Shown piece after piece: positions 10,881 through 49,314 of a stretch of 64,000 bases of DNA. The notes under the pieces were generated by a model. It made no database searches, had not been told where the DNA came from, and was given only the letters and a program-made list of their open reading frames with translations. The position numbers and the translations under genes were made by a program. Source of the stretch: an uncultured archaeon. Lineage in GTDB: Archaea > Iainarchaeota > Iainarchaeia > Iainarchaeales > CSSED10-239. Each line of letters starts with the position of its first letter. Positions within the stretch are counted from its first letter, which is position 1. The stretch is from the NCBI GenBank assembly GCA_964591795.1, contig CAZQEL010000001.1, positions 12,189 to 76,188 on the forward strand, given 5' to 3'.

Positions 10881-10886
10881 ATATTT

Positions 10887-12341: not shown

Positions 12342-12415
12342 TTATAATCACATTTTTATATATTTTTTTTATTAATTTAAACATTTTTTTAAGAAACTCT
12401 TTTTAAAAAATGAAA

Positions 12416-12757: not shown

Positions 12758-12981
12758 GATTAAACACCTGTTTTAAAATAACTATATTGATAAATGCTTT
12801 TGATTTAAGTTAAAATTAAGTAAAAAGATTGATAAGTATAATATGTATTTCTTAGATACATTTAACGGTACAGATAAATAGAGAGATGATAATAAAAGCA
12901 TATACTAATTAGCTAACAAAAACTTTATAAAGGGATGTGTTTTTTTCCTCAAAAATAGGGTTATTTTTATTTTTAAATAAT

Positions 12982-13009
12982 TATATAGTTAAAGGTAATT
13001 AACTATATA
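12982..13009. promoter_or_regulatory. 11-bp perfect inverted repeat (tatatagttaa-N6-ttaactatata) in the divergent intergenic region between rpoH and the KaiC-like gene. Candidate operator.
   Basis: Seen in sequence. Chance occurrence is not negligible in a genome this AT-rich. Confidence 0.2.
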
Positions 13010-13093
13010 TTTATTAATATAACTAAATACTTTTAAATAACTTACTATTCATATATATTAATATTATATTTTATATAAGAAGGTGTTTAAAAA

Positions 13094-13804: not shown

Positions 13805-14009
13805 ATATTTAATATTGTTTTTCTTTTTTTTATTTTCAAATATATTTAAACAATAAAATTCTAATAATTTATATGTATCCTGATATCTAAAATAATAATA
13901 GTTTTGTATTAAAAAGTGTAACAGAACACTTAAATAAACATGAAAAAAACTATAATGTACTTGATTTTTATAAAATTAATTAAAATTAAAAAAAGAAGTT
14001 ATTAATCAA

Positions 14010-15749: not shown

Positions 15750-15769
15750 TATTTTTACCTTTTTAAAAA

Positions 15770-29691: not shown

Positions 29692-32600
29692 TTAAGTATT
29701 ATTTATAACTGGACAAATATAATCACTAGGAATATTAGAAATTATAATGTCAAGTTCATTTTGTGTAAAATTAACTTCACTATCAACCCATTTAATATAT
29801 GTTCTTTGAGGTGATTTATGAATACATGCTTTTTCATTTTTTACAAATTCAAAAATTCCTTTAATTGTTTTTAAATTATTCAAATTATTTCCTAAATTAT
29901 GATCCGAATTTTTAAACGTAATATCTTCAACATTACCAATTAAATTTGATTTAGAAAATATTTTTGTAAAATCACTATTAGATAACTGAGAAGTTTTAAA
30001 TTTAAATTGACTTAAGTCTAAATCAGTAGGTATATATAACATAGTAGTTAAACTTATATTATTATCTGTAACTGTACTTGTGTCTAATATATATCTACCA
30101 ATATCATCACTAGAATATAAATTATCAATAAATACAATATCATTACTAGTCCATTTTAAAAAGTTAGAACCAATTAATGGATCTAAAGAATTGTCACCAC
30201 TATGTAATAAATTATAAGATAACTTACTATTAAGTAAACATGCAGCATATGAATATAATGGAATTGGATATGATAAACTATATGTCATTTGAAGTTGTCC
30301 ATCATTAAATTTTTTTAAATCTAATATATATCCTTCTGAATCAATAATATTATTTAAATTACCTAGACTATTATAATTATTTATTGCTAAAGTATTAATT
30401 GGGTTATTAACTAAAGAATAATTTAAATCTACAATTGAATCAGATCTTATTTGAATTATAGGGTCATAATTATTTGTTTGTATACCATATCCATCTCTAG
30501 TTCCATTTTGATTTAATCTTCCGTCAAATGGCATATAATGAAAAGCACTAAGTTCTGATGAACTTAAGTTTTTTACAAATAATAATTGAATATCAATCTT
30601 AGTATCATCCATAGAATTTTGATAATAATCATTATCATTACCATAAACATCAACCTTATATATTCCAGGCATAAATGTTTTTTGAGTACTATTATTATCA
30701 AAAGTAATTTTTAAGTCACCATCATTAACTGAACTTTCTGTAAATAAATTTGAATTATTAGGTTTAGAAAATTTTGAAAATTGACTAAAAGCATCATTAT
30801 CTCTATAATCTATAAAATCTTTTAAAAGATTGTCAGAAATTCCATCATTCATTAATTTAATATAAAATGGACCTTCAACACAATTTTGAATTTTATAAAA
30901 TATAGATATTAGCATCTGTAAAGAATCACAAGCATATTTTTCATACATTTCAGAAACATTATTACCAATACATTTATTAGTCCAACCTCCTTCTTCATAT
31001 TCTTCACCCCAATTAAAAAACACTTTAGGCAAATACTCTAACCCAGTTTTACAAGAATCGGTTTGATCTTGACAATAACCTAAAATAAACATATCAGTGC
31101 CATCATTTTGACCACCAACACCTATACAATAATCAAAATCAATGGTGCTCTGAGTTATTTCTGGGTCTAATTTAAAAATGGTATAATCAGCAAGAACATT
31201 CTTATTAAAGTCAGAATTAAGAATATCTAAAACTTTAAAGTTAAATAAAGTATTTTCAATTCCTGTTGTTTCATCTAAGGATAAATCACTAAAATTAGAA
31301 TTATATGTTACAGAACGTGTTATATCTGTAGTTATTAAAGATAACTCTGAAGATAAATTATTAACTGATAAATTTTCATCAATAGGATTTAAGGATACTG
31401 GAGTTAAAAGTTTAACTTTATATAAATTTAAATTATTATTAAAACTATATATTTTAGATTGACTACATTCATCTTGAGAAATACAAAATATTTCTACTGA
31501 ATTCCAAGTAATATGTGATATATTAACTATTGATTCACTATTATAAGCCTTAACATTAAATGTTTGTGTAAAATTTACATCATTACCATTAAGTAAAATA
31601 TTAAATGTTAAAACAATTGCTGAGTTGTTTGTAGGATAGTCACCAGTATATGCATCATTAAACTTAAAATTAATTGGAATTAACACTGATGACAAAATAT
31701 TTTGATTATTTAAATTAATAGAATCATTAAATACACTATTATCAATAAACAAAGGTAAACTATCTACTATAATATTTTTTAAAACAGCATTAACATCTGA
31801 AGATAAATTATAATCTATAACAATACTAGGGTTGATATCTTTTATAATTTCAATATCATAAACTTCATTTTCATCAGAATATCTAACACCTTTATTTGGA
31901 TTAGGATAACTAGCACTATAATTTATAGAACCTAAATTTTGAACAACAATATTTGAGTTTACATCAAGTAACAAAGTAGTATCATCATTAAACTTTAAAT
32001 GATTTGTATAACTTTCATTAATATCAACACCAGTACTAATATCATCATTTAAAACTAAACTAGTCAAAACAAGAGTTTGAACTTGATTTATATCCTTAGG
32101 TAAATCATTAACAGTAAAAAGATTAGATTTAATTTGATTTACATCAAATACACTAGATGCTCCTGTGAATGTAAGATCATTTAAATTTGCAACAACAGTT
32201 GATTGCTTTAAAATATTATAATTTTCAAGATTAACATCTCCAAAAATAATTGAATCATTTAATCTATAAAAATATGTAGAAAGATTAATATTATTTTCTA
32301 AAATTGAATATCCAGATTCAATAGTTTTTGATCTTACAACAGTATTGTTTATAAAACCAGCTTCTGGAGTAAAAATAAAATAAAAATTAATTTTTTTAGA
32401 CATATCTTCAACAGGAAGATAAATATTTTGATCAGTTAACAATCCTTGTGCATCCGTATCACCTAAAGAGATTGCTTCTCCACCAGTTACTTGATATTTA
32501 ATTAAAATATTTTCAATTGGTGCATTATAATTATCAACAACTTTAAATGAAACATTATTTTGTCCAATAAATATATCATTATTTAAATTACTAGTAATTT

Positions 32601-35600
32601 CAAACACAAAATTAACATCTGAATAATATGAATATAATGAAGTATTAATTATAGGGAAATTGTTTAAAATATCTGTTGATAGGACAGGTTCTGAATATGC
32701 TGTATTTTCAAAAAAACCAGTTGGCTTAAATATTGTATAAGTATTAATGTTATAACCTCTGTTTGCATCTATTAAATTTATTGAATAATTATAATCATTA
32801 ATAACTGTTTGATAATAAACAATAGGATCCATATTACCATCAGGATCTCCTGAATCTAATAAATAACCATAGCTTGCATATTCTAAATTATTATTTGTAT
32901 AACTTGAAGTTTGATCAATACTACCTTGTCTTAATAAATTTTTCAAATATAAATAATAAATATCATATTTATAATTTGTTTCAATAGATACTGAATAACC
33001 ATCTACATATGGAGTTAGTACAGTACCATTAAAATCTTTAATTTTCTTTGAATATATATAATCTAAATTATTAAATGGAATTTGATATTTATTTGTTTTT
33101 GAATAGAAATAACCATCAGGATAAATTGGAACTTCATTCCAAGAGATAGATTGAATTGGATCAAAATTATATATTTCACCATATTTTGTAGCCAAAGATC
33201 TATAACTTAGTTTGTAAAAATCAGTGGGTGCAACAGGAGCCTCTTTAAATTTAATATTTGCAGAAAATTCTAAAACATTTGGAGAAAGATCCATTACATT
33301 AACTTCAAACCATTTATATTTATTTCCATTATAATCATAACCTTGATCAGTAGTATAATTTTGATTAAATAAAGTTATATTAAAATCAGGAATATGCTCT
33401 CCAGAAAATTTATATCCTCTATCAATTTGAATTTCATCTGATAATATATCATCAGAAACAAAATAAATATAATCGTCATCTATAAATATTTCATTTCCTG
33501 CTCTTAAGTGTAAATATTTAATTTCAGAATCACTAAAGCATGAAGTGTATTTAAATTTAAGTCTATATTCATCATCAAGCCCATTATTATTATAATCAAT
33601 ATTGGTTACAATTCTAGTTCCTGTTTTATTATATAAGCCAGTTAATTCAAGTTTAGAATCTGAACATGCAACTAAACTAGTTAAAGAAACTTCTTTAAAA
33701 ATTTCTTGATCAGGTACAAGTGTTAAAACTTCTGTTTGATAAGTTGTATATCCTTGTGTACTAATAACAGCATAAACTCTATTTACTCCACCAATAAAAT
33801 AATATTGAATATTTGAATCAACATCAACAGACACATAATCAATTACTGAATTATGCTCAACATCATAGAAATTAATATCAAAATTTATATTTGGAGTTAC
33901 TTTTAAATTTAATATTTTTGGAATATCTTGTAAATTCACAAATAATGGTAAAAAAGCATTAACATCAAGCTCTTCAGTACTTGAAGTTCCTTCTCTATCA
34001 ACAATACCATGTACAGCATAAGCATAATAGTTCTTATGAGCCCTCTGTAGTTCAAAATTAACATCACCAAATTGATTAGTAAATTTAGAAACTGGGTTTG
34101 TAAGTACAAAATTATTATCAACTTCCCTATAAAGATAAACTCTTGCGTTTGAAATATTTTGAATATTATCTTTTACATTAACACCAATTTTTCCAGAATT
34201 CAGTTCTGATGAAAATTCTAAAGGTATAATTATATTTCTATCTAAAGAAGTTACTAAAACTGGATCTGGTTGATTATAACCATTAATTTCAGTATTTATT
34301 ATTCTAACTCTATAATCATAAAAATTAATTACATTAAAAGAATAATAATTTGTATCTTCTGCTATGTATTCAGTAAATACATAACTTTCGTTTGTATCTT
34401 TTAATTTTGATTCAAGAGTAATGTCTCCAAAAACTGGTTCACTAGTATTTGCATCTTTTAAAGTCACAGAAATATAACCAGTAGTACCTAAAATACAAAT
34501 TCCATCGCTATTTATATTTAAGAAAGGTTTTAAATGTTCATTATTACAATCAATAACCCCAGCTACACAAAAGTTAGAATACTTAGGTAAAGTACAATCA
34601 AAGTTAATTAAATCATCTCTTGTAAATAAAACAAAAGAAGTATTAATAGTTTCTTCTTTAAAAACTGTTAAAGGTCCTTTTTTAGGATATGTTAAATATC
34701 CTTCTTTTGTAACAGTTAAAAGATATTGTTTAGGATCAAGAGAAAATTCACCAAGTCCATAAATGTCAGTTTGTTTATTATCAAGAGGTAAAATAAAATT
34801 TGATTGTGAATAATTATAAACAGTTACATCAGAACCTAAAAGAGCATCCCCAGAGATATTTTTCACACTAAAACCTAATTTACCAATATCTGAAGTGATT
34901 CTAGTTAAAACAACTTTATTGTTAGAACCAATTACTTTATTTGTAATTGATGAAAATTTATTTGAAGTTACTGACACTCTTAAACGTCCACATGCAGCAG
35001 GAGTTTTAACTGTAATTCTACCATTAGCTATAAGTGTATTTTTTGGAGTAGGTATTTTTTCATTATTTGTACATGAAAATACAATATTTAATGTTGTATT
35101 TAAAATTAAAATATCATTATTTTCAACAAACATAATTTCTCTTTCTTCTTCTTCACCAACTGGTAAAAGAGGGGAATCAAGATCAATTAAAAGAGTTACA
35201 GTTTGTCTCAAACTATTTTTACTAAGTTTAAATGAATGATTTAAAGTAGTATAATGTTCTTTAGATACAATTAAATTAACATTTTGTTTTTTAGATTTTA
35301 AATCTTTAAATATTGCTTCTCCAAACACATTTGTAGTTAAAAATGAAATGTTTTCATCATTAATTTGGAAAGTTACTAATGCTCCATTTAAAGGAACACC
35401 AGCAGGATCATAAACATCAACACCTATAGTCCAAGATTTTGAAAAAGATAAAGTACCTGATAAAATTAAATATAATAATAATGCTAAAATTAATAAAAAT
35501 AAAATAAAACTAGGAAATACTTTATCAATACGATCTGTTAGTTTATTAACTGGTATAACTTTACTAATTCCATCAATCATTTTATAATAATTATCCTCAA

Positions 35601-36027
35601 AAAAGAAATAACCTTTTTTAAAAAAATTACCTGTCTTTTTAAAAAAACCAACTTTATTAACATTACTTAAATTCTTTTTAATTTCAGTTTTTGGTTTTTC
35701 TTCTTTAACATTTAGTTTATTTGAAGAACTAGTTTTATTAACAAGTTCTTTTTTTAAATTATTTTTAGCAGAATTTGTACTATTAATTGATTTTGACAAT
35801 TCACTTAAAACATACTCTTTTGTATTAGCTAAAGATGCAACTTTTTTTAATGGAAGTTTATTATTTTTAATAATTTTTAAAACAAGATAACCTACGTTAT
35901 CATTATACCCTTGTAACTTTATTGTTTCTTTAATTTCTTTTTCAGTAAAATTCATTGTTTTGTCTGATAGTAGACTATAAAGCTTTTCTGCTTCGATTTT
36001 ATCTTGAGATTTTTTAAACAATGACAT
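29692..36027 (-). CDS. Giant type-II membrane-anchored surface protein (2111 aa). It has a ~170-aa Lys-rich cytoplasmic N-terminus, one TM segment, a long N/S/T-rich beta-sandwich repeat region and the family C-terminal module.
   Basis: TM FPSFILFLLILALLLYLILSG preceded by DRIDKVFPSF. Repeated xxKEGYxxY-type motifs (TVTKEGYLTYPKKGPLTV, ISTQGYTTYQTEVLTL) suggest carboxypeptidase-regulatory or transthyretin-like folds. The C-terminal module shares LPKVFFNWGEE...EKYACDSLQ..., FHYMPFDGRLN...DGYGIQ and ...KACIHKS... with three paralogues. Confidence 0.8.
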   Translation of the reverse strand: MSLFKKSQDKIEAEKLYSLLSDKTMNFTEKEIKETIKLQGYNDNVGYLVLKIIKNNKLPLKKVASLANTKEYVLSELSKSINSTNSAKNNLKKELVNKTSSSNKLNVKEEKPKTEIKKNLSNVNKVGFFKKTGNFFKKGYFFFEDNYYKMIDGISKVIPVNKLTDRIDKVFPSFILFLLILALLLYLILSGTLSFSKSWTIGVDVYDPAGVPLNGALVTFQINDENISFLTTNVFGEAIFKDLKSKKQNVNLIVSKEHYTTLNHSFKLSKNSLRQTVTLLIDLDSPLLPVGEEEEREIMFVENNDILILNTTLNIVFSCTNNEKIPTPKNTLIANGRITVKTPAACGRLRVSVTSNKFSSITNKVIGSNNKVVLTRITSDIGKLGFSVKNISGDALLGSDVTVYNYSQSNFILPLDNKQTDIYGLGEFSLDPKQYLLTVTKEGYLTYPKKGPLTVFKEETINTSFVLFTRDDLINFDCTLPKYSNFCVAGVIDCNNEHLKPFLNINSDGICILGTTGYISVTLKDANTSEPVFGDITLESKLKDTNESYVFTEYIAEDTNYYSFNVINFYDYRVRIINTEINGYNQPDPVLVTSLDRNIIIPLEFSSELNSGKIGVNVKDNIQNISNARVYLYREVDNNFVLTNPVSKFTNQFGDVNFELQRAHKNYYAYAVHGIVDREGTSSTEELDVNAFLPLFVNLQDIPKILNLKVTPNINFDINFYDVEHNSVIDYVSVDVDSNIQYYFIGGVNRVYAVISTQGYTTYQTEVLTLVPDQEIFKEVSLTSLVACSDSKLELTGLYNKTGTRIVTNIDYNNNGLDDEYRLKFKYTSCFSDSEIKYLHLRAGNEIFIDDDYIYFVSDDILSDEIQIDRGYKFSGEHIPDFNITLFNQNYTTDQGYDYNGNKYKWFEVNVMDLSPNVLEFSANIKFKEAPVAPTDFYKLSYRSLATKYGEIYNFDPIQSISWNEVPIYPDGYFYSKTNKYQIPFNNLDYIYSKKIKDFNGTVLTPYVDGYSVSIETNYKYDIYYLYLKNLLRQGSIDQTSSYTNNNLEYASYGYLLDSGDPDGNMDPIVYYQTVINDYNYSINLIDANRGYNINTYTIFKPTGFFENTAYSEPVLSTDILNNFPIINTSLYSYYSDVNFVFEITSNLNNDIFIGQNNVSFKVVDNYNAPIENILIKYQVTGGEAISLGDTDAQGLLTDQNIYLPVEDMSKKINFYFIFTPEAGFINNTVVRSKTIESGYSILENNINLSTYFYRLNDSIIFGDVNLENYNILKQSTVVANLNDLTFTGASSVFDVNQIKSNLFTVNDLPKDINQVQTLVLTSLVLNDDISTGVDINESYTNHLKFNDDTTLLLDVNSNIVVQNLGSINYSASYPNPNKGVRYSDENEVYDIEIIKDINPSIVIDYNLSSDVNAVLKNIIVDSLPLFIDNSVFNDSINLNNQNILSSVLIPINFKFNDAYTGDYPTNNSAIVLTFNILLNGNDVNFTQTFNVKAYNSESIVNISHITWNSVEIFCISQDECSQSKIYSFNNNLNLYKVKLLTPVSLNPIDENLSVNNLSSELSLITTDITRSVTYNSNFSDLSLDETTGIENTLFNFKVLDILNSDFNKNVLADYTIFKLDPEITQSTIDFDYCIGVGGQNDGTDMFILGYCQDQTDSCKTGLEYLPKVFFNWGEEYEEGGWTNKCIGNNVSEMYEKYACDSLQMLISIFYKIQNCVEGPFYIKLMNDGISDNLLKDFIDYRDNDAFSQFSKFSKPNNSNLFTESSVNDGDLKITFDNNSTQKTFMPGIYKVDVYGNDNDYYQNSMDDTKIDIQLLFVKNLSSSELSAFHYMPFDGRLNQNGTRDGYGIQTNNYDPIIQIRSDSIVDLNYSLVNNPINTLAINNYNSLGNLNNIIDSEGYILDLKKFNDGQLQMTYSLSYPIPLYSYAACLLNSKLSYNLLHSGDNSLDPLIGSNFLKWTSNDIVFIDNLYSSDDIGRYILDTSTVTDNNISLTTMLYIPTDLDLSQFKFKTSQLSNSDFTKIFSKSNLIGNVEDITFKNSDHNLGNNLNNLKTIKGIFEFVKNEKACIHKSPQRTYIKWVDSEVNFTQNELDIIISNIPSDYICPVINNT

Positions 36028-36050: not shown

Positions 36051-38339
36051 TTATTTAAATATTGGAGTAAATGGAAAATCAAAACTTTTATTTCCAGTAT
36101 CAGAAGTAATTGTTCCAACTAATCTATAATTTTGATAATAACAATAAATATCTTTTTCACTAAGATTCATTAAAGGATCATAATACCATTTTAAATTTGC
36201 AGGTTCTATTTTATATTCATAAATTCCAAGTTTAGGATTTAACTCACCTATAATTATAAATTTATTAGTATACACCGGAAGTTCTTTTTTTAAAAAAGGA
36301 TTATAATTTATAAATTTATTAAAATTAATATTATTTTTAGCATAATAAATATTTAAATCATTTGCATTAATTATACCTTCATTATTTGAATAAAGAGAAT
36401 ATGTTTTAGAAAACTTAAGCTCAGTTGAAACTGGCATTATTTCATCAGTTAAATCATAATAATCACACAAAGAACATTCTTCATTCAAAGAAAATACACT
36501 AGGTATACTTTGAGAAATAAATGAACTAAAATCTTCTTTATTTGCAGAATTAATATTTATTTTTCCAGTATTATAATCGAAATTAGAATTTGGATTTTTT
36601 ATATAACATCCAGAATTAATATTTATAGCTCTATTAGTTGTTGATATAATGGAATTATTATCTTCAGTTAAAGTTGAAATGGTTGAAACTTTTGATGGAA
36701 GATAACTACCATTTTCTAAAACATTAATTTTTAAGTCAGAAGTATTTGCAGACACATTTTTTTTACTATTTAATATTAATTGTAACTTTTTAGATTTATT
36801 AATTAAGTAATCAATAAAAATATTTTGTGTATAACCAGGAATGCCGTCTACTCCATTATTTCCAACAACACCTTTTAAACCAGCTTTATTAGCTTCTAAA
36901 TTTAAATTAAAAATATTTGTGTTTTTTAAAATATCTACTTTGAAATTAGAATTATAACTTCCACCATTACCACCATTACCAACTTCACCAACCTCGTAAT
37001 GATTATTTTTAGAACCACCATTATTTCCTTTACCAGTGAACGCATTAAAATTAAAAATACCATTATTATTTATTTGACTAAATTCATATTGTGGATTAAT
37101 ACAATCAAAACCATCAGAACTCCATCCTACTTGACAAAAAAATATAGAACCACCAGCACCACCATCTCCACCTTTTGCATAATCACTAGCTCTACCACCA
37201 TCAAAACCAGTGTTAGCACCCTTACCACCATTTCCTGCTAAAAGATTTACATTAAAATTATTATTATTTAATATTTTATTTATATAAAAAATAATATTTC
37301 CACCAGCACCACCAAAACCACCAGGTCCAGGATGATGAGACCAGTACACAGTACAAGAAGTTCTTCCAGCATAAGATCCATCACCACCAAAACCACCATT
37401 TCCTGCAATTAAATTTAAATCGAAATTCCCATTATTATCTAAATTATCTAAAATAAAAAATATATTTCCTGCAGGATTTGCATCAGATCCTTTTTGTCCA
37501 TTACACATATATGGAACTTGACCATTTTGACTATTTTGAGATTTTAAAGTTAAATCTAGCACACCATTATTTATAAGTGTATTTCCATTAAAATAAATAC
37601 TTCCACTATATGGTGTATAAGGTAAATTTAATTCAGCACAAAAAGTTTGAGGTATATTCATATTAAAATTAAGTTTTGAATTTTTAAAAACATTTAATTG
37701 TTTAAATTTAAAAGTAATGTGATCATGAATATAATCATCAAAACCACTAGAACAAACAAATCTTGTTTTTGAAACCATATTAATTAAAGAAGTACCAGAT
37801 ATATTTACAATAGGAACATCCAAATCAAAAGTTGCAGAACCTAACTTATTATTATTATTCACAAAAATATCAATATCATGATTATTTGTATTTAAAGTAT
37901 CAACTCCTGAAAGAGTAATATCTTTTGTATTATTTTTCATTTCAAAATTTAAATCAACATTTAAAACTAAATTTATTTTTTGATTAGTACAAGAAGATTG
38001 TTTAGTGAAAACCAAATCAGAATAATAAAATATTTTTGATGGAGAAGGTATGTAAGATGTAATTGCTTGTTCAATACAGTCTCTATATTGCTCATAGGTT
38101 TCATAATAATTACCAATTATATAATTAGTTTTACAAACAGATTCTGCATCTATAAATGCTGAAGTCTTATCAGTAGAATTAAAAAATGTAAAATAACACT
38201 CATCAGCAGTAGTACAACCTAAATCTACTTTAGTTAATTCAAATGGAGTATTTATAGAACATACTTCAGAAAAAACATATGATTGTATAAATAATAAAAA
38301 AACTATTAAAGTAATTGTTATTATTATTTTTTTAATCAT
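36051..38339 (-). CDS. Secreted Cys-rich and Gly-rich repeat protein (762 aa), probably a beta-helix.
   Basis: Signal peptide. A Cys-rich N-domain. Tandem degenerate repeats such as AGNIFFILDNLDNNGNFDLNLIAGNGGFGGDG, GGAGGNIIFYINKILNNNNFNVNLLAGNGGKGANTGFDGG and GGDGGAGGSIFF. Confidence 0.7.
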   Translation of the reverse strand: MIKKIIITITLIVFLLFIQSYVFSEVCSINTPFELTKVDLGCTTADECYFTFFNSTDKTSAFIDAESVCKTNYIIGNYYETYEQYRDCIEQAITSYIPSPSKIFYYSDLVFTKQSSCTNQKINLVLNVDLNFEMKNNTKDITLSGVDTLNTNNHDIDIFVNNNNKLGSATFDLDVPIVNISGTSLINMVSKTRFVCSSGFDDYIHDHITFKFKQLNVFKNSKLNFNMNIPQTFCAELNLPYTPYSGSIYFNGNTLINNGVLDLTLKSQNSQNGQVPYMCNGQKGSDANPAGNIFFILDNLDNNGNFDLNLIAGNGGFGGDGSYAGRTSCTVYWSHHPGPGGFGGAGGNIIFYINKILNNNNFNVNLLAGNGGKGANTGFDGGRASDYAKGGDGGAGGSIFFCQVGWSSDGFDCINPQYEFSQINNNGIFNFNAFTGKGNNGGSKNNHYEVGEVGNGGNGGSYNSNFKVDILKNTNIFNLNLEANKAGLKGVVGNNGVDGIPGYTQNIFIDYLINKSKKLQLILNSKKNVSANTSDLKINVLENGSYLPSKVSTISTLTEDNNSIISTTNRAININSGCYIKNPNSNFDYNTGKININSANKEDFSSFISQSIPSVFSLNEECSLCDYYDLTDEIMPVSTELKFSKTYSLYSNNEGIINANDLNIYYAKNNINFNKFINYNPFLKKELPVYTNKFIIIGELNPKLGIYEYKIEPANLKWYYDPLMNLSEKDIYCYYQNYRLVGTITSDTGNKSFDFPFTPIFK

Positions 38340-38814: not shown

Positions 38815-41800
38815 TTAACTACATTTTAAAGCATCACGTTCAGCTATAAATTCTTCAGGATAAATTTCAGCAGGGTTATAGAAAAACTCAGAAGAAGAAC
38901 CATCTGTTGAATTTAGAACACAAATCTGATTTTCTGCAATTAAATCAAACACACTCTTTATAGAATTAATACTAGAAACTGCAGTTTGATATCCTAATGA
39001 AACATTTGGACTAAAGTCAGTTCCATTTAATGAAAATTTAACACCAACATCTTGATCTGACTTATTCTCAAGAGTATATGTTTCTTTTTCAGGAGCATAG
39101 AAAATAGTTCTTAAATAAATTTCACCTGTTTTAATAACTTGTGGCCAATCTAAAATATAGGATGATTGAGGACCATTAAGTGATGCATATCTATCATAGT
39201 AAGCCATGTTAAATATACTATTTCCTGAAAAGTCACAGCCAGAACCAACACCAGTCCATCTTAAAAGAGAAGATGAGTCTGTAAGTGTATTATCTGACTT
39301 ATCTTTCAACCTATAAAACACATTTAATGGATTAGTATTATTTTTTGTAACTTCCATTAAAATTGGCACAGCTTCACTTTTGCTTAAAATTAAATCAATA
39401 TTATTTGCATTATATTTAACACTTAAAATATTACCTCTAGTTTCAAGAGAAGAATTAATTCTATAAAAATCACTTGAATTAGTAATATTTATATTTCTTA
39501 ATGCATTTGAACCATTATCTAAATCTGATTTTACATTATCTCCATCAATATTAATTATATCTCCAGTATAACTTACACCATATCCTTGTCTATTATAACC
39601 TGAATTTGTTTGACCAACAAATCCATTGAATGGTATTCTATAAAATACACTATCTGTTTCTGGTGATTGTAAAAATCTAAATGTTACATAAGTATTTAAA
39701 TCTACTTGATCAGCAACATCTGTAAATCTCCAACTACTATCATTAAATAAAAAATCAATTTTAATTTTATATTTACCAGGACTTGTTAGATTCACATTAT
39801 TTTTTTCGCTTGAATATTGTTTTATAAAATATAAATTATTCTTAAAAAGTTCAGATAAATAACCATTACTAAATACTTCTGGTGAAGACATAAAAGTATA
39901 AATTCCTGTTCCAGAACCATCTTCTTTAGATGCTAAACCACCATATGCAACATCAAAATCATTTATAAAATTTTGATTATAGTTATCTGTTATTAAATAC
40001 GCGTCAAACTCTAAAAGTTTTTTAAAATCTATAATATCCTGTTGACTCCAACCATTTCCATTAACATTATCAGGATACATATTTTTATTAAACCATAAAT
40101 CAAGATAACTAATTCCATTATAATTAGCTGTAGTTGAAGGAACCTTACAATCTGTTACTGGTGCTTCATCATATATATCTAAAGACACTATTGATTCAAA
40201 TTTATTATTTTGCATATCAACAGATTCACCAGTAAGATTAATATTTAAAGATAAATCATCACCAATTATTGGTGAATTTGAACTTTCAGTAAATTCTAAA
40301 ACTATTTCTGAAAAAGTATCATCTTCAGAAATATTTAAAGTTACAGGTATTAAATTTAAAGCTTCAGTAAAACCAACTAAATCTCCATCAGCATTTCTAT
40401 AATAAGCAGCTGTAGGATATTCATTATTTAATTTAGCAACTATATTTCCAATTTTTATACTTCCAGATCTATTGTCTAAATAAATTTTAGAAATAAATTT
40501 ATTTTCTGCAGTACTTAATTCAACAGAATCAATACCAACTTTAGATACTGAAACATTATTATCAGCATTAATAGGTTCTGCATTTTTAATGTAATAAAAA
40601 CCATTTAAACTTTGAATTACTTGTTCTTGAGGACTTAAAGGATATAATACTGTTCTTTGTGATATGAATTCTTCAGCTTTATTTATTCTGTTTAAAACAA
40701 CTTGAGTTAATTGAGTTGAATCACAATATTTTTCAGAACATCTATTAATATCTTGAACTGACCAATCCCAATCTAATAATACATTTGGAACTGCACCAGA
40801 ACCAGTTTTACCAGTTTTACCAGTATCTGTAACACAATCTTGAACTACCAAATTATAATTTTGTGTTTCTTCTGGTTTAGTAATAAAAAATCCAAATCTA
40901 TAGTTTCCAATCTTTTCAGAATTTGCAAATGCAGGATCTTGTATTTCAACTGAATCTTCAAGTGTTGGATTAAATTCATAGTTTTTAAAATAATATTTCT
41001 TTGAATCATTATTAATGTGACTATATATGTTATCAGTAAAACTAAATTGTAATGGTTTTATTCCAGATTGCTCTGGCCATAATGTTTCATTAACTTTACA
41101 AGTATAAAACATTTCAGTTTCAAGTTGTATTCTATTTCTAGTTGGTTTTGCACCATAACATTTAATTGATTGAGATAAAACTCCATCTTCAATTGTTGGA
41201 TTAAATGAATTATCACAATTTCTATTTTTTATTATTTGAGAATAATAATCTTCAATACTTGAATTAGGATTATTACATAAAACATAATCTGTTAAAGATA
41301 AATCAGCGTCTTTTGTAAGTCTATCTTTAATTTTATTATAAATTTTATCTGAATCTTGTGTTCTTGTAATTAAATCATTATAAGTATAATATCTAGCACC
41401 AGTAATATCAAAAATATTTAAATAAGAAGATTCATCGGATACATCATCTACAGTGATTATTTTTAAAAATTCACCATTAGAAAGTGTATACTTTTGAGGA
41501 ACATCTAAATATTTATTATTTAAAACTGGATATGCAAATTCATTTTTCCAAGAAGTTGCTGCCCAAGAAACTAAAACAATCACAGCTAAAGTAATCCAAC
41601 CATAAACAGGAATAGCAGCTAAAACTGCAGCAAATCCAACAGATCCAGCTGCAGTAGCACTAGCAACTGCAATTTCAAGCGCTGCAGCAGTAGCAATACT
41701 TAAACCAACCGCAGTAACAGTTGCTGCAGCTAAAACAGTTATACCAATTGCAGCAGCAACAGGCATAGCACCTTCATCAGTAGTACCCATAAATTCTAAA

Positions 41801-44800
41801 TTTTCTAAGGATTTATAATTCATTTTTTGGAAAGCATCATCTTGTTTATTAAAAGTTGATGACAAATAATCAGAAAAGGTAGATGTAACAGTAACTCCAT
41901 TTTGAGCAATTTGAGCTTTATATTGTTCAACATCCTGAACTGTAGGAATAGAATTAACATAATCCCAAGGAGTCTGTTCTAAATTATTATTATATAATCT
42001 TACACTTTCAGAAACTTTAGTAGTATCTGAAATTTCAATAAAAGGATCCTCCATCCATAAACCACTAGAATCTTTTGCATTTATTTTTAATAAAGCATAA
42101 GCTGAAGTAACTTCACGTCCAATATTATTAACAACAGATATTTTATTGTTTAAAACATAAGCACCAGGAGCAATAGTTGAATCTTTTCTTTTAATTGAAA
42201 CAGTTTTTTCTGAGTCTAAAAGACTAAAATTTAAAATACCATTTTCTTCATCAGTATTATCAATAGATAAATCTCTACAGGAATAATCATTTCCTTCACA
42301 AAGATCCATTTTTAATGTTGCTTTACCAAAACATTCGTTTTTAATAGTTAGATCTTTAGCTACAGTATCCTCAAGAACAAAAAGACCACCAGAATTAATT
42401 TTTTCTCCACCATCATAATAGGATAAACATTGTGTTAAATCCATAATTGATATATTTGCTTTTAATAAAATATCATTAGAACCTTTATTTACAAAAGTTA
42501 AACCCTCTTCTGTTTCTACTTGAGCATTTAAATAAATATCAGTTTTTACTTCTGCAAATTTAGCACCATTTGTGTTAAATGCAATTTCAACAGTATATTC
42601 TTCTTCAGGTCTCATTTCATTAATTAAAATTCTATAATAATTTTCTGATAATTGTATTTGATTAGAAGCACCTGAACCAATTAATTTTAAGAAATAAATA
42701 CCATATCTATCTCCATTAGATTTAATTTTTGCTTGAACATTCTTAATTGTTATAGGTAAATTTCCTTCTTTAGAGATACAAGTGTTTTTTATTTTTAAAG
42801 TTGTAGATTGGGTTGTTGTTGAAACAACTGTATTCCATTCACCAGCACTTTGAGTAACAACTAAACAATCATCTTCTAAAACACCGTTTCCAACAGATAA
42901 TTTTACATTAACAGGAATATTAAATAAATATTTTTGATTATTTAATAAATAAGTGGCAGTTAAAGCACCTAAAATATTTTCACTTACAGAATGTGATTGA
43001 GCACTTTCAGAAGGTGCAAATTTAATTAAAATTTCTTTAGATTCGTTTGCAGGTATTACAAAACCATCAGGTGTACTAATTATTTGATTATTAAGATAAT
43101 TAACAGTTTGTAAAAGATTTAATAAATAGGATTTATTAAAAGAAACATCCTGTTCATTAAATTGATTTAAAATTAATGGATATGCAGTTTTATTTTTAAG
43201 TTCTAAAGTATATATCTCCCCATCCATATTTGTCTTATGAATAAATACTTCTAATGGTGAATTTGAATTAATTATTTCAGAATTATTAAAAATATCAATA
43301 ATATCTCTAGTAATTGAAAATTCAACTGGATCTGCAAAATATTTAGATTTAATAGATTCAATTATAAAAGTTTCTCCTGGTCTTAAAGATGGAAGACTAA
43401 TTGTAGCTTTTCCTTCTGCATCAGTTGTTCTACCAGTTGAAACTATAGTTGTTCCAGTTATTGTTTTTTGTAAAATATTAATATTTGCACTCTCAACAGC
43501 ATTTCCAGTAGTATCTTTAACAATTACGGTTAATGTAAATGGAACACCAGGTACAATATTTTTAGGTTCATAATCAACTATCATTTTATCAAGATCTGAT
43601 ACAACAAAGTTAATTGGTAAAGTATAAATTACTGATTGTTCAGAAACAATTCTAGTTTGAAGTTTTGATTGTCCTAAAATTAATGGGAATAATTTTAAAT
43701 TAAAATTTATATTTGAAAACGGATTTAAATTATCCTTTAAAAGTTCATTTTCATAAAATGGAAGTTTAAAATTAGTTTCTCCAGTTGCAGTTTCGCCCAC
43801 TGATGAAAATTCACCTGTAACATCATATGATTTAATACCAACCATAGCTGTAGGATTACCTTCAGAATTAACATTAACTGCTGAAAGTCTAGCATCAGGA
43901 TAATTATTAGGTGATGAGTTTGTTATTTGATATTCTAAAGTATAATCAGAGTTAACAAGCATTGGAATATTTTTATTTCCTCCAATATCATATCTTAATC
44001 CTTCTGAAACATCAACATATTGTCCTGAGAAACAAAATGTAGTATTACAAAGACTTGTTGCTTCTACAAAATATTGTAATTGAGTATAATTTTGAGTCAT
44101 GTAGTTTATAGATGTAATTGATGATGTATAAAAGAAAGATACTTTATCATTAGTTTGTGCATTTCTAATTCTTACAGGAATTGTAATTTCATGAACTGAT
44201 GCTGGAAAATCATTTACTTGTATATTTACAAGTTTTGATTCTAAATAATTACTTGAATTTGAAAAAGGTTCACTCTCATAATAAACAGCTACACCTAAAG
44301 AGTTATTTTCAGACATTATAAAAATAATATCATCACTAACATTTATTTCACTTCCAGCTCTAAGTGTAAAATTAAAATTTGTACTTGAAGATGGCATTAT
44401 AATTTTATATTTTAAATAAAATACTTGATTATTTTTTAAAGATTCAACTTCTTGATAGTCAGTATTATATAAACCTAAATATTCAGTAACAACATCTTCA
44501 GTTGTAAGCGCTCTTTCTAAAATAATATTTTTAATAATAGTTTTACTTTTATAAATTCTAAACATTTCAGTAAAATAAGGTAAATAACCATCAGTTTCTA
44601 TTTTTATGAAAACTTTTTTATCTGCTTTTATTTGATTTTGCAAAGTACCATTAGCTGAAGCCATTGCAGTTCCTAAAACAGCACCTGTTTCTGAATAAAA
44701 AGTTACTGTTGAATTACCAACTATTTCTTCTAATTTATTTTTTACATTTAAATTAATTGTTCCTTTTCCAATAATAACAGGAAGAGTAATATTTGTATCT

Positions 44801-46332
44801 GTTGGTGGTAAATTATGATATTCAGAAGAAATTTCTTCAATATAAAGATTCTTTGTCTTAACTGTAAAGTTTAAATCTGGAATATTTTTAAAAACTGCAT
44901 TTCCATTTTCATCAGAAATACTAAAATCAAATCTAGGATCAATATATTGCCCATCAGCATCATATAACCAAGATTTAATACCAATAATTGGTTTATCATC
45001 TTCGTCTTTTATTGAAACAATAATATTTGAAACATTACTTATAGTTATTTTTTCTAAATTAAAAGTATATATGTTTAATGAATTAGATACTGACATTAAA
45101 TTTCCAGGAATGTACCCTTCTGCTGCTACTTTAAGTGAATAATTTTTATTAGTATCTACATTAAAAATAAAACCTTCATGAAGTTGTCTATCTTCAACAT
45201 TTTGATTTCCATCTAAAAGTAAAGTAACAATAGGATTTGTAGAAGCATCTAAAACAATACCTGTATCTCTATCTTTTACAAAAACAGTTATTTCATTTAA
45301 AATAATTTCTTGATTTGTATCTGGATCAATAACAGGACTAATTCCATCTCCAGTATCAATCATATTAATAGTAATTTCAGACATTGCATTTTTTATAACA
45401 ATTACATCTTCTTGTGATGCTAAATATCTATTTTGAACATCTGTAGCTTTAACAACATAATCACCAATAGGAATAGAATCAAAAGATCCAACCCCAAAGT
45501 TTGATTGAATTGTTTTTATTGAACTAACAGGATCATCAACTGAGAATATTTTTAAAGTAATTGAGTCTTCAATATAATACTCTCCACTCATTAAAGAAAC
45601 ATAAGCAGATCCAACTTCTAAAGAAATTTCTTTTGGACTTAATCTAATGATTGAATCAGACATTTTTATTGGAATACTTGTAGCATTATATTTATCACTT
45701 ACTACATTTGCATAAAGAGTTTTACAGCTTGAAGGAACTTCTAAAGACACAGAACCATCAACTGTTTCTATTGATGAAGGTGTAATTACATCTCCATTAT
45801 CACAAATAATAGTTACACTTAAAGCATCTTTAATTTTTTGTTCAGTTAAAGCATCTTGAAAATATACAATTTTTGGAAAATTAACTGGAATATTTAAAAG
45901 ACCGATTATAAAATTAAAAGTTTGTCTATCAAAAATTAGTTCTTGTTCATAATAGTCATAACCTTCTTGTTCAACAATAAACAAATAAGAATTATTTTTA
46001 TTTAAGGTGATTTTAAAAGAACCAGCAACATTTGTAGTATAATTATTTGTAGTTCCGTCTGATATGTTTCTAAGTTTAAAATCAAAATTACTTAAAATAT
46101 TATTTTCATTATCAGCAAGCCTTAAAGTTACATCAATGTTATTTGATTTTAATGAACCTAAACTTGAACCAAAAATTAAATAAAGTACTATTAAAATAAT
46201 TAAAATGAATAAAAAAAAAGAAGTTAAAGGATACTTTTTATCTAAAGGACCTGTTATTTTCTTAATTGGAATTCTATTATCTATCCCTGTAAGAATATTT
46301 TGCCATGTCTCTTTAAAACTCATAAAAATCAC
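38815..46332 (-). CDS. Giant membrane-anchored surface protein (2505 aa). It has an N-terminal signal anchor, ~1400 aa of beta-sandwich repeats, an internal Ala-rich hydrophobic segment and the family C-terminal module.
   Basis: N-terminal TM FFLFILIILIVLYLIF. Repeats VEQEGYDYYEQELIF, VAAEGYIPGNL, IETDGYLPYFTEMF. Internal hydrophobic block AMPVAAAIGITVLAAATVTAVGLSIATAAALEIAVASATAAGSVGFAAVLAAIPVYGWITLAVIVLVSWAATSW. C-terminal motifs LLDWDWSVQDINRCSEKYCDSTQ, FYRIPFNGFVG...RQGYGVSYTGD, WTGVGSGCDFSG and ...ICVLNSTDGSSSEFFYNP. Confidence 0.8.
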   Translation of the reverse strand: MIFMSFKETWQNILTGIDNRIPIKKITGPLDKKYPLTSFFLFILIILIVLYLIFGSSLGSLKSNNIDVTLRLADNENNILSNFDFKLRNISDGTTNNYTTNVAGSFKITLNKNNSYLFIVEQEGYDYYEQELIFDRQTFNFIIGLLNIPVNFPKIVYFQDALTEQKIKDALSVTIICDNGDVITPSSIETVDGSVSLEVPSSCKTLYANVVSDKYNATSIPIKMSDSIIRLSPKEISLEVGSAYVSLMSGEYYIEDSITLKIFSVDDPVSSIKTIQSNFGVGSFDSIPIGDYVVKATDVQNRYLASQEDVIVIKNAMSEITINMIDTGDGISPVIDPDTNQEIILNEITVFVKDRDTGIVLDASTNPIVTLLLDGNQNVEDRQLHEGFIFNVDTNKNYSLKVAAEGYIPGNLMSVSNSLNIYTFNLEKITISNVSNIIVSIKDEDDKPIIGIKSWLYDADGQYIDPRFDFSISDENGNAVFKNIPDLNFTVKTKNLYIEEISSEYHNLPPTDTNITLPVIIGKGTINLNVKNKLEEIVGNSTVTFYSETGAVLGTAMASANGTLQNQIKADKKVFIKIETDGYLPYFTEMFRIYKSKTIIKNIILERALTTEDVVTEYLGLYNTDYQEVESLKNNQVFYLKYKIIMPSSSTNFNFTLRAGSEINVSDDIIFIMSENNSLGVAVYYESEPFSNSSNYLESKLVNIQVNDFPASVHEITIPVRIRNAQTNDKVSFFYTSSITSINYMTQNYTQLQYFVEATSLCNTTFCFSGQYVDVSEGLRYDIGGNKNIPMLVNSDYTLEYQITNSSPNNYPDARLSAVNVNSEGNPTAMVGIKSYDVTGEFSSVGETATGETNFKLPFYENELLKDNLNPFSNINFNLKLFPLILGQSKLQTRIVSEQSVIYTLPINFVVSDLDKMIVDYEPKNIVPGVPFTLTVIVKDTTGNAVESANINILQKTITGTTIVSTGRTTDAEGKATISLPSLRPGETFIIESIKSKYFADPVEFSITRDIIDIFNNSEIINSNSPLEVFIHKTNMDGEIYTLELKNKTAYPLILNQFNEQDVSFNKSYLLNLLQTVNYLNNQIISTPDGFVIPANESKEILIKFAPSESAQSHSVSENILGALTATYLLNNQKYLFNIPVNVKLSVGNGVLEDDCLVVTQSAGEWNTVVSTTTQSTTLKIKNTCISKEGNLPITIKNVQAKIKSNGDRYGIYFLKLIGSGASNQIQLSENYYRILINEMRPEEEYTVEIAFNTNGAKFAEVKTDIYLNAQVETEEGLTFVNKGSNDILLKANISIMDLTQCLSYYDGGEKINSGGLFVLEDTVAKDLTIKNECFGKATLKMDLCEGNDYSCRDLSIDNTDEENGILNFSLLDSEKTVSIKRKDSTIAPGAYVLNNKISVVNNIGREVTSAYALLKINAKDSSGLWMEDPFIEISDTTKVSESVRLYNNNLEQTPWDYVNSIPTVQDVEQYKAQIAQNGVTVTSTFSDYLSSTFNKQDDAFQKMNYKSLENLEFMGTTDEGAMPVAAAIGITVLAAATVTAVGLSIATAAALEIAVASATAAGSVGFAAVLAAIPVYGWITLAVIVLVSWAATSWKNEFAYPVLNNKYLDVPQKYTLSNGEFLKIITVDDVSDESSYLNIFDITGARYYTYNDLITRTQDSDKIYNKIKDRLTKDADLSLTDYVLCNNPNSSIEDYYSQIIKNRNCDNSFNPTIEDGVLSQSIKCYGAKPTRNRIQLETEMFYTCKVNETLWPEQSGIKPLQFSFTDNIYSHINNDSKKYYFKNYEFNPTLEDSVEIQDPAFANSEKIGNYRFGFFITKPEETQNYNLVVQDCVTDTGKTGKTGSGAVPNVLLDWDWSVQDINRCSEKYCDSTQLTQVVLNRINKAEEFISQRTVLYPLSPQEQVIQSLNGFYYIKNAEPINADNNVSVSKVGIDSVELSTAENKFISKIYLDNRSGSIKIGNIVAKLNNEYPTAAYYRNADGDLVGFTEALNLIPVTLNISEDDTFSEIVLEFTESSNSPIIGDDLSLNINLTGESVDMQNNKFESIVSLDIYDEAPVTDCKVPSTTANYNGISYLDLWFNKNMYPDNVNGNGWSQQDIIDFKKLLEFDAYLITDNYNQNFINDFDVAYGGLASKEDGSGTGIYTFMSSPEVFSNGYLSELFKNNLYFIKQYSSEKNNVNLTSPGKYKIKIDFLFNDSSWRFTDVADQVDLNTYVTFRFLQSPETDSVFYRIPFNGFVGQTNSGYNRQGYGVSYTGDIINIDGDNVKSDLDNGSNALRNINITNSSDFYRINSSLETRGNILSVKYNANNIDLILSKSEAVPILMEVTKNNTNPLNVFYRLKDKSDNTLTDSSSLLRWTGVGSGCDFSGNSIFNMAYYDRYASLNGPQSSYILDWPQVIKTGEIYLRTIFYAPEKETYTLENKSDQDVGVKFSLNGTDFSPNVSLGYQTAVSSINSIKSVFDLIAENQICVLNSTDGSSSEFFYNPAEIYPEEFIAERDALKCS

Positions 46333-46345
46333 CCTGTGTTAATAA

Positions 46346-49267: not shown

Positions 49268-49314
49268 ATATTTTACACCTTTAATTTCATAAAAGTTTTT
49301 TTTAATAAATTTAA

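Follow-up and report, generated by a model that had tools for sequence, protein, structure and literature searches.

A hydrophobic junction element and a split paralogue among the giant surface-protein genes of a Forterrea-like archaeon

A 64,000-nucleotide (nt) stretch of DNA from an uncultured archaeon of the Iainarchaeota (contig CAZQEL010000001.1; the whole stretch is called the window below) encodes a giant protein of 2505 amino acids (aa), C2505, which carries an internal Ala-rich hydrophobic block, while two neighbouring genes, E1862 and D973, look like the halves of a protein of the same architecture. The question raised by this locus is whether the block is a scar of gene fusion or fission or a component of the protein family in its own right. 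Hydrophobic junction elements of this kind are a recurrent feature of the family, frequent though not universal. The division between E1862 and D973 is genuine and, judging from sequence comparison, the two are fission products of another paralogue, here termed the E-D type, and not a split form of C2505. With regard to function, it is somewhat probable that the block forms a marginally hydrophobic two-pass hairpin in the cell's own membrane, with the C-terminal module outside, in a family in which the E-D-type paralogue has undergone fission.

The Ala-rich block of C2505 and its colinear neighbours

The genes and segments on which the argument rests are listed here, with Kyte-Doolittle hydropathy means (KD) and approximate free energies of membrane insertion (dG); TM denotes transmembrane, and H1 and H2 are the two helices of the junction.

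38815-46332, minus strand: C2505, C-type, a giant N-anchored surface protein in fused form
46144-46239, minus strand: C2505 N-terminal signal-anchor TM segment (aa 32-63), preceded by a conserved cytoplasmic motif; KD 3.05, dG about -5.9
41548-41769, minus strand: Ala-rich hydrophobic block (junction hairpin) of C2505, aa 1522-1595, 74 aa
41701-41757, minus strand: first marginally insertable segment, aa 1526-1544, AAAIGITVLAAATVTAVGL; dG +0.6 kcal/mol
41626-41700, minus strand: middle Ala-rich segment, aa 1545-1569; dG about +3.8, predicted not to span alone
41569-41625, minus strand: second marginally insertable segment, aa 1570-1588, VLAAIPVYGWITLAVIVLV, including the conserved 'P..GW' turn; dG about -0.2
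38818-41547, minus strand: C-terminal module of C2505 (aa 1596-2505), colinear with D973
46346-49267, minus strand: D973, D-type, a stand-alone C-terminal module
49175-49267, minus strand: signal-peptide-like N-terminus of D973 (aa 1-31; segment 6-31); KD 2.46, dG about -0.9
49028-49156, minus strand: Gly-rich amphipathic, H2-like element of D973 (aa 38-80); non-TM by dG (+4.5 to +9.9)
49268-49314, minus strand: 47-nt intergenic gap between E1862 and D973, holding the Shine-Dalgarno sequence AGGTG
49315-54903, minus strand: E1862, E-type, the N-terminal module plus a tail of its own
50431-50487, minus strand: H1-like amphipathic helix of E1862 (aa 1473-1491, AFVSFLRDGLLSGTLSALL), at the position of the block; non-TM, dG about +6.6
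49318-50430, minus strand: helical Ala-rich tail of E1862 (aa 1492-1862), with 7 Cys in its last 55 aa

The dG values are approximate, being simple sums on the Hessa biological hydrophobicity scale with position dependence ignored. For comparison, the N-terminal anchors range from -5.9 to -7.2 kcal/mol and the D973 signal peptide has -0.9, while the Gly-rich element of D973 and the H1-like helix of E1862 have the positive values given above.

An initial annotation had placed a GC-rich, Ala-rich hydrophobic island at 41550-41780, between the repeat region and the C-terminal module. This description holds: the exact 74-aa string was located at 41548-41769, precisely at the module boundary, with a GC content of 0.437 and 24 Ala in 74 residues, against ~3.7% Ala in the remaining C2505 (binomial P ~1.6e-16). 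No 75-aa window of the other cluster proteins contains more than 14 Ala. The KD mean over 19 aa reaches 2.07-2.44 within the block (2.07 over aa 1525-1543, a window overlapping the first segment), which makes it the sole strongly hydrophobic stretch of C2505 besides the N-terminal anchor (aa 32-63), and the sole charged residue inside it is E1553, in the middle segment. The block is ~19 residues longer than its counterpart in P0002, a 58%-identical relative, and the residues missing there overlap the middle segment. An origin of the extra ~19 aa by internal DNA repetition or slippage was rejected, as only a weak and unconvincing 15-nt direct repeat (87% identity, 36-nt spacing) was found.

The architecture of the family comprises a cytoplasmic motif, a TM anchor, ~1400 aa of immunoglobulin (Ig)-like/CarboxypepD_reg repeats, the H1 plus H2 junction, and a C-terminal module of ~850-900 aa. 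In C2505, Pfam matches to CarboxypepD_reg, Big_1, and SpaA lie within aa 71-990. Its orthologues are 37-58% identical and all of them are fused. The open reading frame (ORF) tool starts the gene at a GTG codon (46332); the true start is probably the alternative ATG at 46323, giving a protein of 2502 aa, since a Shine-Dalgarno sequence (GGGTGA) precedes it and the orthologues align from residue 4.

The claimed colinearity of the C-terminal module with D973 was borne out by pairwise alignment, in which C2505 2091-2490 matches D973 537-946 (29% identity, E 2e-38) and C2505 1825-1890 matches D973 297-385 (E 1e-7). By the offsets of these alignments, residue 1 of D973 would fall at about residue 1528-1554 of C2505, within the block. 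The N-terminus of D973 is likewise as first described, in that aa 6-31 look like a signal peptide and an amphipathic, Gly-rich stretch occupies aa 38-80, and E1862 has the leader and the repeats, aligning over its residues 23-1388 with C2505 23-1395 (E 1e-22), but lacks a C-terminal module. Two further giants of the cluster share parts of the same plan. The C-terminal module of A2111 aligns with those of C2505 and D973 (E 6e-8 to D973), and F2307 has similarity in the N-terminal module and, by eye, a weak C-module motif ('C..YCDQEQF') at aa ~1875-1912.

Several motifs of the C-terminal module are invariant or nearly so in alignment A1, namely C..G.TG...P....W...C....YCD.TQF, SPFYYLPFDG.VG...RQGYG, FSPS.ATPV, W.G.G.C.DF.G, and YL.TIFYTP. 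AlphaFold2 (AF2) was run on C2505 aa 1501-2505 with A1, which holds 44 sequences; the overall predicted local distance difference test score (pLDDT) was 70.8, mostly above 90 for aa ~1830-2505 and below 50 for the block and the next 230 residues. The model of the module is mostly beta. Its parts are a helix, on which the YCDxTQ motif lies, a sandwich of the Ig-like kind, a further helical segment, and an extensive beta domain holding the invariant PFDG...RQGYG. Without an alignment, D973 gave a pLDDT of 31. A Foldseek comparison of the module model with PDB and BFVD returned no global match, and sequence and profile searches of Pfam, NCBIfam, and PDB with the module returned no match.

The split pair and its origin

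Both peculiarities of the locus might be artefacts, the island as foreign or chimeric DNA and the E1862/D973 division as a frameshift or misassembly, and the jump in GC content from ~0.26 in the surrounding gene to 0.44, together with the shortness of the 47-nt gap, speaks for such a view. The GC contents at codon positions 1, 2, and 3 are 0.60, 0.62, and 0.095 in the block and 0.37, 0.33, and 0.069 in the rest of the gene; the excess is confined to positions 1 and 2, and the island is thus a consequence of an Ala/Gly/Val-rich composition. Synonymous codon preferences are equal in the block and in the rest of C2505, and the foreign-DNA reading is ruled out by the agreement of codon usage and of GC at third positions with the remaining gene. 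The same block is present in P0001, a 99%-identical protein fragment from a JGI metagenome. As for the gap, for which the initial annotation had advised a check for frameshift or misassembly, a Shine-Dalgarno sequence (AGGTG) stands 8 nt before the ATG of D973, whose reading frame differs from that of E1862 and whose product has a signal peptide of its own. Over 44910-49566, gap included, L003, an independent assembly from Logan, does not differ from the window, and the division recurs at other loci, among them the complete curated genome of Candidatus (Ca.) Forterrea. An artefact is extremely improbable on these grounds, and the split is genuine.

The corresponding genes at other loci are given below, with the percent identity in brackets.

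L007, complete genome of Ca. Forterrea: E-like 1867 aa (57%), D-like 964 aa (64%), C-like 2466 aa (57%)
L004, JGI metagenome contig of 291 kb: E-like 1759 aa (47%), D-like 1007 aa, C-like 2476 aa
L002, JGI contig: upstream part unusable for an E-like gene, D-like 991 aa, C-like 2486 aa
L001, ENA contig: E-like partial, by position only, D-like 1024 aa, C-like partial (N-terminal part)
L006, genome with 47% GC: E-like 1840 aa (25%), D-like 983 aa, and a fused 2392-aa giant with a block

The E-like and D-like genes form a split pair in L004, L006, and L007, and the separate D-like genes carry their own signal peptides. In L001 and L002, a separate D-like gene stands ahead of the C-like gene, the upstream E-like gene being unconfirmed; the partial gene upstream in L001, which has an Asn/Lys-rich tail, gave no BLAST match to E1862. 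The first 250 nt of L002 (1-250) are GC-rich, unrelated to the AT-rich remainder, and probably a chimeric contig end.

It had been proposed that E1862 and D973 together represent the split form of the architecture seen in C2505. They do reproduce the fused architecture, and this part of the proposal stands; the part that does not concerns their source, which is an E-D-type paralogue. Ten fused giants align to both genes (P0100, P0103, P0108, P0113, P0116, P0119, P0129, P0137, P0150, and P0090), with aa ~3-1500 matching E1862 and the last ~650-700 aa matching D973 ~270-950, and a 2446-aa protein of a Ca. Iainarchaeum genome (L008) aligns to both in the same manner. The paralogue is thus a single protein of 2200-2660 aa in other genomes. 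In L005, P0100 lies upstream of a C-like gene, which is the syntenic slot of E plus D; the partial gene on its other side is unidentifiable. Taken over the orthologous loci, the E-D type is split in L004, L006, and L007 and fused in L005 (P0100) and L008, and the C-type is always fused. Downstream of the fused E-D gene in L008, a further giant gene (10067-16881 of JACPJC010000007.1) is broken into three ORFs of 309, 929, and 1039 aa, the last of which has a junction hydrophobic block at aa 156-215; it is either a pseudogene or the product of frameshift errors in a metagenome-assembled genome.

In a neighbour-joining (NJ) tree of the C-module core, calculated without support values, the D-type proteins group as a clade within the fused E-D proteins, with P0100 as its sister, and the C-type proteins form a clade of their own. 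Fused forms are the rule in the family and split forms are nested within them, which gives the direction as fission and not fusion. The stand-alone C-modules P0096 and P0099, which have signal peptides, lie on other branches of the tree, so more than one fission is possible.

The junctions of the fused E-D proteins show where the break occurred. Just after a "DW" motif there is an H1-like helix, then 100-250 aa of low-complexity linker, then an H2-like element rich in Gly ("SLFSG...G..NPWV..IGGG"), and finally the C-module. The E orthologues keep the H1-like helix as 'LR(D/E)G', and the D-type orthologues keep the H2-like element as 'G(L)xP(V/I)VHG(I/L)..GA.S.F.T(F/Y)' or "NP(I/V)VHG(L/I)..GA.SGF"; that of D973 can be aligned with P0150 aa 1745-1808 (E 0.002) and is similar to P0100 aa ~1670-1725. 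The signal peptide of D973 lacks a counterpart in the fused E-D proteins and is therefore an acquired feature. The tail of E1862 gave no match in C2505, and the tails differ among the E orthologues, that of L004 being cadherin-like. The E-D gene accordingly broke within the H1-H2 linker in the Forterrea-like lineage; E1862 kept H1 and gained a lineage-variable tail, and D973 kept H2 and gained a signal peptide. A derivation of C2505 itself by fusion of E-like and D-like genes is thereby ruled out.

E1862 and D973 resemble known gene fission pairs in being adjacent, co-oriented, and colinear with single fused homologues, in having the break in a variable linker, and in that the downstream partner, D973, acquired a translation start and an export signal of its own. 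They differ from such pairs in their unusual size (1862 and 973 aa) and in a break between the helices of a hairpin-like junction.

Two other explanations of the junction element may be set beside these results. One, close to a suggestion of the initial annotation, takes the block for an internal signal peptide, either a relic left over from fusion with a formerly independent secreted protein or a functional site at which signal peptidase would release the C-module. The mapping of D973 residue 1 onto the block by offset is in keeping with this, as are the small residues at the end of the block ('WAATSW'), which could fit the -3/-1 rule, and the dG of its last segment (-0.2, compared with -0.9 for the D973 signal peptide). 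The D-type proteins, however, have a signal peptide in addition to the Gly-rich element that corresponds to H2, which makes the signal peptide new and not a descendant of the block, and the nesting of split forms among fused ones points in the same direction. In addition, the block does not fit a cleavable Sec signal peptide: it has 74 aa (30-100 in relatives), as against an h-region of about 7-15 aa, is preceded by an acidic 'TTDEG' where a positive n-region would be expected, and belongs to a family with net acidic flanks, the C-terminal flank of most relatives being '(E/D)DPC' and not of the AxA type. An internal signal peptide is very improbable, and its form as a relic is ruled out.

The other explanation is an inter-module zipper, in which a helix interface between H1 and H2 joins the N-terminal and C-terminal modules, maybe with oligomerisation, and H1 of E1862 and H2 of D973 re-associate non-covalently, so that the pair would work as a single fused protein does; the hydrophobicity of the helices would vary between paralogues. 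Such a zipper would also explain how E and D can function apart. It would account for a fission point exactly between H1 and H2, for the retention of both motifs after fission (H1 in the E orthologues and H2 in the D orthologues, each more conserved than its surroundings), for the adjacency and common orientation of E and D in all genomes examined, and for the Cys-rich segments in the E tails and some D N-termini. It is weakened by the low AF2 confidence over the junction and by modest amphipathic moments, and it leaves the longer and far more hydrophobic C-type element unexplained. An interface of this kind is rather unlikely as the explanation of the junction; it is compatible with a hairpin in the cell's own membrane and the two are not exclusive.

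The junction element across the family and its possible roles

An exhaustive profile-free search for representatives with the C-terminal module gave 352 at E<=1e-3 and 111 at E<=1e-30. These representatives are mostly 2300-2600 aa long and match in their C-terminal 400-1100 residues; database names, where given, are "hypothetical protein" from "archaeon" or "Candidatus ainarchaeum sp.". Word-indexed searches with the C-terminal part of C2505 and with alignment A1 each found the 99%-identical fragment alone, low-complexity words probably swamping the candidates. The state of the junction was scored in C2505 and in 79 representatives, a set of 80 full-length sequences in which the YCDxTQ motif served as anchor.

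Contiguous hydrophobic block of at least 36 aa: 20/80
Block with short breaks: 7/80
Two hydrophobic helices more than 40 aa apart: 7/80
Single helix: 26/80
None: 20/80

At least one hydrophobic segment is therefore present at the junction in 60 of the 80 sequences, so that the block of C2505 is no lineage-specific scar of fusion or fission. In relatives, the element is 30-100 aa long and Gly/Ala-rich, and it occupies this junction in most of the ~90 full-length members among the 352 representatives, all of them from DPANN (Iainarchaeota/Forterrea-like) archaea. The blocks of the family contain 20% Ala and 14% Gly and are almost uncharged (0.9% K/R inside), and the usual turn in the middle consists of Pro, PP, "GPxG(W)", or "(W)CPxC". 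Their flanks are acidic, with 21% D/E against 4.8% K/R downstream and 12.6% against 8.7% upstream. Many blocks are bordered by "C(D/A)W.EA" upstream and "(E/D)DPC...L.DY(V/I)INL" downstream, and of 29 blocks, 14 have both flanking Cys (Fisher P for co-occurrence 5e-4, with no correction for phylogeny).

Among the C-type proteins, the block is present in 8 of 9 full-length representatives, including P0004, which is the L004 orthologue, and also in the protein of Ca. Forterrea. The large extracellular proteins of this organism are direct orthologues in the same order, and its C-like protein has a Gly/Ala-rich junction block of ~55 aa; the block of C2505 is longer (74 against ~55 aa), more Ala-rich, and very divergent in sequence. 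Throughout the C-type, the block is far less conserved in sequence than the domains on either side, yet stays hydrophobic and retains the "P..GW" turn, the turn motif conserved among the orthologues being P-x-x-G-W or GPxG. Divergence of sequence with retention of hydrophobicity fits a lipid-facing or otherwise physico-chemically constrained segment.

A membrane hairpin, which the initial annotation had named in re-entrant form as a possible role, is the most plausible functional interpretation of the block and would work as follows. In the C-type proteins, H1 and H2 lie adjacent to each other, both strongly hydrophobic, with only a Pro/Gly turn (CPxC in other lineages) between them, and together constitute the block. 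All four giants of the cluster have the N-terminal cytoplasmic motif and a strong TM anchor, which implies an N-in orientation with the remaining chain exported. In such a Sec-threaded chain, an uncharged stretch of 50-74 aa with KD above 2 should stop and then restart transfer. The first segment of the block would act as a stop-transfer sequence during Sec-dependent export and the last as a re-initiating signal-anchor. The result would be a two-pass helical hairpin, a second anchor at the junction, which would keep the C-module outside as in D973; the stand-alone D-type proteins carry signal peptides, and the C-module on its own is thus an exported domain. In D973, cleavage of the signal peptide is uncertain, as a Pro follows the predicted site. 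The repeat region of ~1460 aa would become a loop, and the C-module would be held near the membrane as an uncleaved signal-anchor of D973 would hold it. Two marginal passes with an interfacial middle segment are favoured by the dG profile (+0.6, +3.8, -0.2).

In an exported chain, a stop-transfer/re-start pair halts and then re-initiates translocation and leaves both flanking domains outside. Such hairpins, together with the internal signal sequences of viral polyproteins, are the nearest functional analogues of the block, and its second helix would take the role for the C-module that the signal peptide has in D973; the analogues differ in that the block segments are marginal (dG ~0), the turn lacks positive charge, and no cleavage site is evident. 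In composition, the nearest described elements are the glycine-zipper hairpins (Gly-zipper_YMGG PF13441, Gly-zipper_Omp PF13488, PF13436, and the glycine zipper 2TM domain PF05433). Glycine-zipper hairpins, such as those of the SlyB family of bacterial outer-membrane lipoproteins, consist of two small-residue-rich helices with a tight turn and are thought to be embedded in one leaflet. Membership of the C2505 block in these Pfam families was rejected: it has no match at E<=10, the blocks of three relatives (P0024, P0058, and P0091) have sub-threshold matches only (the best, P0024, 25.0 bits against a cut-off of 28.9), and small-xxx-small pairs are not enriched in the C2505 block (16 against 14.5 +/- 2.1 in shuffles, P 0.32). 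The block is also Ala-rich and not Gly-rich, and is internal to an archaeal giant, whereas glycine-zipper proteins are small and bacterial.

Several observations weigh against the hairpin in the cell's own membrane and the scenario that goes with it. The segments of the block are only borderline for insertion on the approximate dG, the putative cytoplasmic turn is nearly devoid of Lys and Arg, so that the positive-inside rule gives no support, and the pLDDT of the block is below 50. The block could also be read as three helices, which would place the C-module inside the cell. In some relatives, the long inserts between H1 and H2 hold Cys pairs, suggesting an extracellular position and arguing against both helices spanning the membrane there. 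Furthermore, A2111 and F2307 have no internal hydrophobic segment, nor has about one quarter of the family, and the C-type representative P0006 has lost the block or has it in degenerate form; the core function of the family is therefore not dependent on the hairpin. On the evolutionary side, the absence of support values limits the NJ tree.

A further possibility is that the hairpin is membrane-active and is stored outside the cell, buried or shielded, until it enters a host-cell membrane in the manner of a fusion peptide or a pore-forming toxin's hydrophobic hairpin, aiding this metabolically dependent archaeon in attaching or opening a connection to its host. An Ala/Gly-rich composition with dG ~0 is typical of fusion peptides and toxin hairpins and not of constitutive TM anchors, the acidic flanks and the uncharged turn would agree with such a role, and the flanking Cys and CPxC motifs of relatives suit an oxidising extracellular setting. 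The sub-threshold glycine-zipper matches of relatives tend in the same direction, as does a match to the T domain of diphtheria toxin, although it is very weak. The Forterrea genome paper (Probst & Banfield 2018, PMC5905446) predicts a host-dependent lifestyle, and the legend to its Fig. 2 assigns to large extracellular proteins a predicted role in interactions with other organisms. Against this, a stretch of 50-74 aa with KD above 2 in the Sec translocon would be expected, from the behaviour of stop-transfer sequences, to enter the cell's own membrane, and the elements of the D-type and E-D-type proteins are too polar for insertion. By inspection, no basic or protease-type cleavage site is found upstream of the block ('EFMGTTDEGAMPV'), no heptad-repeat machinery was identified, although no coiled-coil analysis was made, and the C-module has no fold match to fusogens or toxins in PDB and BFVD. 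A host-directed hairpin is considered unlikely.

The conserved gene cluster and related systems

The window has a GC content of ~25% and contains archaeal hallmark genes, including a split RpoB (10887-12341 and 9063-10880) and RpoA' (6443-9028), as well as genes for an ATP-dependent DNA ligase and several aminoacyl-tRNA synthetases. Very large minus-strand genes are clustered in its upper half and take up ~32 kb of the 64 kb. In addition to C2505, D973, and E1862, the cluster consists of the following genes.

62039-63718, minus strand: G559, at the head of the cluster
54944-61867, minus strand: F2307, a fused paralogue without junction block and with a divergent C-module; orthologues in L004 and L007
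38369-38743, minus strand: b124, a small gene between C and B
36051-38339, minus strand: B762, between b124 and A2111
29692-36027, minus strand: A2111, a fused paralogue without junction block; orthologue in L004
28939-29292 and 29296-29667, minus strand: two small ORFs of 117 and 123 aa at the downstream end

The cluster includes four paralogous types of giants, A, C, E-D, and F, of which C2505 represents one, in a Forterrea-like DPANN archaeon. The conserved order is F, E, D, C, a small gene, B, A, and two small genes, and it is kept in L004, L007, and L002. The whole cluster is found in L004 in identical order, with identities to the window from 24% (a partial F-like fragment) to 52%. A homologue scan with single proteins led to the Ca. 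Forterrea locus and one Ca. Iainarchaeum locus (L008). The nearest named genome is the complete chromosome of Candidatus Forterrea multitransposorum (CP045477.1), a DPANN archaeon of the Diapherotrites/Iainarchaeota type with ~0.84 Mb, whose E-, D-, and C-like orthologues are 57-64% identical and in the same order as in the window.

A2111, C2505, E1862, and F2307 share the N-terminal cytoplasmic motif 'Y..(I/V).D.(I/L)(D/E)K..P(S/T)F' directly before the TM anchor (~46240-46300 in C2505), which suggests a common cytoplasmic partner or a sorting signal. The motif is present in distant relatives too (L006 and L008).

Some other features of the cluster members and their surroundings have also been noted. 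The N-terminus of G559 ('KNKRGFNLFTALIALMLVSITIVF') resembles a class III (type IV pilin-like) signal peptide, and the protein has no Pfam or NCBIfam family match. The N-terminus of B762 looks like a signal peptide, and aa ~300-500 of the protein hold Gly-rich 'GNGG.GG.G' repeats. Both B762 and b124 are kept in L002, with a B-like gene in L004 and a b124-like gene in L007 (31-43% identity), and neither has a family match in profile searches. The two small ORFs are the best-conserved members of the cluster (identities of 51-52% to L004 and of 31-34% to L006, the 47%-GC locus); their counterparts in L006 are strongly hydrophobic, and they are possibly small membrane partners of the giants. F2307 contains a prion-like, low-complexity stretch of ~120 aa rich in Gln, Asn, Tyr, and Gly (aa ~1283-1400; ~57668-58021), which lies between the repeats and the C-terminal part, roughly at the position of the C2505 block. 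Downstream of the cluster, two full-length genes for serpins stand in tandem on the minus strand (25737-27002 and 27033-28304; Pfam Serpin, E 1.5e-108 and 3.6e-113), each with a non-serpin N-terminal extension of ~50 aa; as protease inhibitors, the serpins might be functionally linked to a putative host-contact locus. An EgtD-like histidine-specific S-adenosylmethionine methyltransferase (22185-23132, minus strand; Pfam Methyltransf_33, E 2e-33) is unexpected in a genome with predicted minimal metabolism.

Most biosynthetic pathways are missing from DPANN archaea such as Ca. Forterrea, which are believed to depend on other cells for their living. Comparable candidates for host interaction, the SPEARE proteins of Nanohaloarchaeota (Hamm et al. 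2019), are reportedly defined by protease, adhesion, and restriction-endonuclease domains. The two systems are alike in consisting of very large cell-surface candidates for host interaction in genome-reduced DPANN archaea. Compared by description only, the giants of the present cluster differ in having CarboxypepD_reg, Big_1, and SpaA-type repeats and an unmatched C-module, and profile scans of these giants did not find protease, adhesion, or restriction-endonuclease domains. Literature searches gave no account of the family beyond one remark in a Forterrea figure legend, and a keyword look-up in the Forterrea paper returned nothing on architecture, a junction hairpin, paralogue types, or fission (PMC5905446).

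A wider conjecture would combine these elements. The junction hairpin would be deployable into a host membrane, instead of or besides the cell's own, the nine-gene cluster, with its four giant paralogue types, small partners, and a pilin-like protein, would form an apparatus for contact or bridging by which DPANN archaea of the Forterrea/Iainarchaeota type tap their hosts, and the split E and D proteins would reassemble via the two helices; taken as a whole, this is quite improbable.

Fission in itself is an ordinary event, and its value here is that of a natural experiment, which marks a module boundary and a likely interaction interface. The E-D type has been split between the junction helices either repeatedly or anciently. 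For a family annotated as "hypothetical protein", the paralogue types, the hydrophobic junction of the C-type, and the E-D split between the junction helices provide concrete handles. Giant anchored surface proteins with gene fission are of a sort already known, and the main interest lies less in the block itself than in the conserved DPANN surface-protein cluster. The size of this cluster and the retention of its gene order at only 30-50% protein identity make it a prime candidate for cell-surface interaction machinery.

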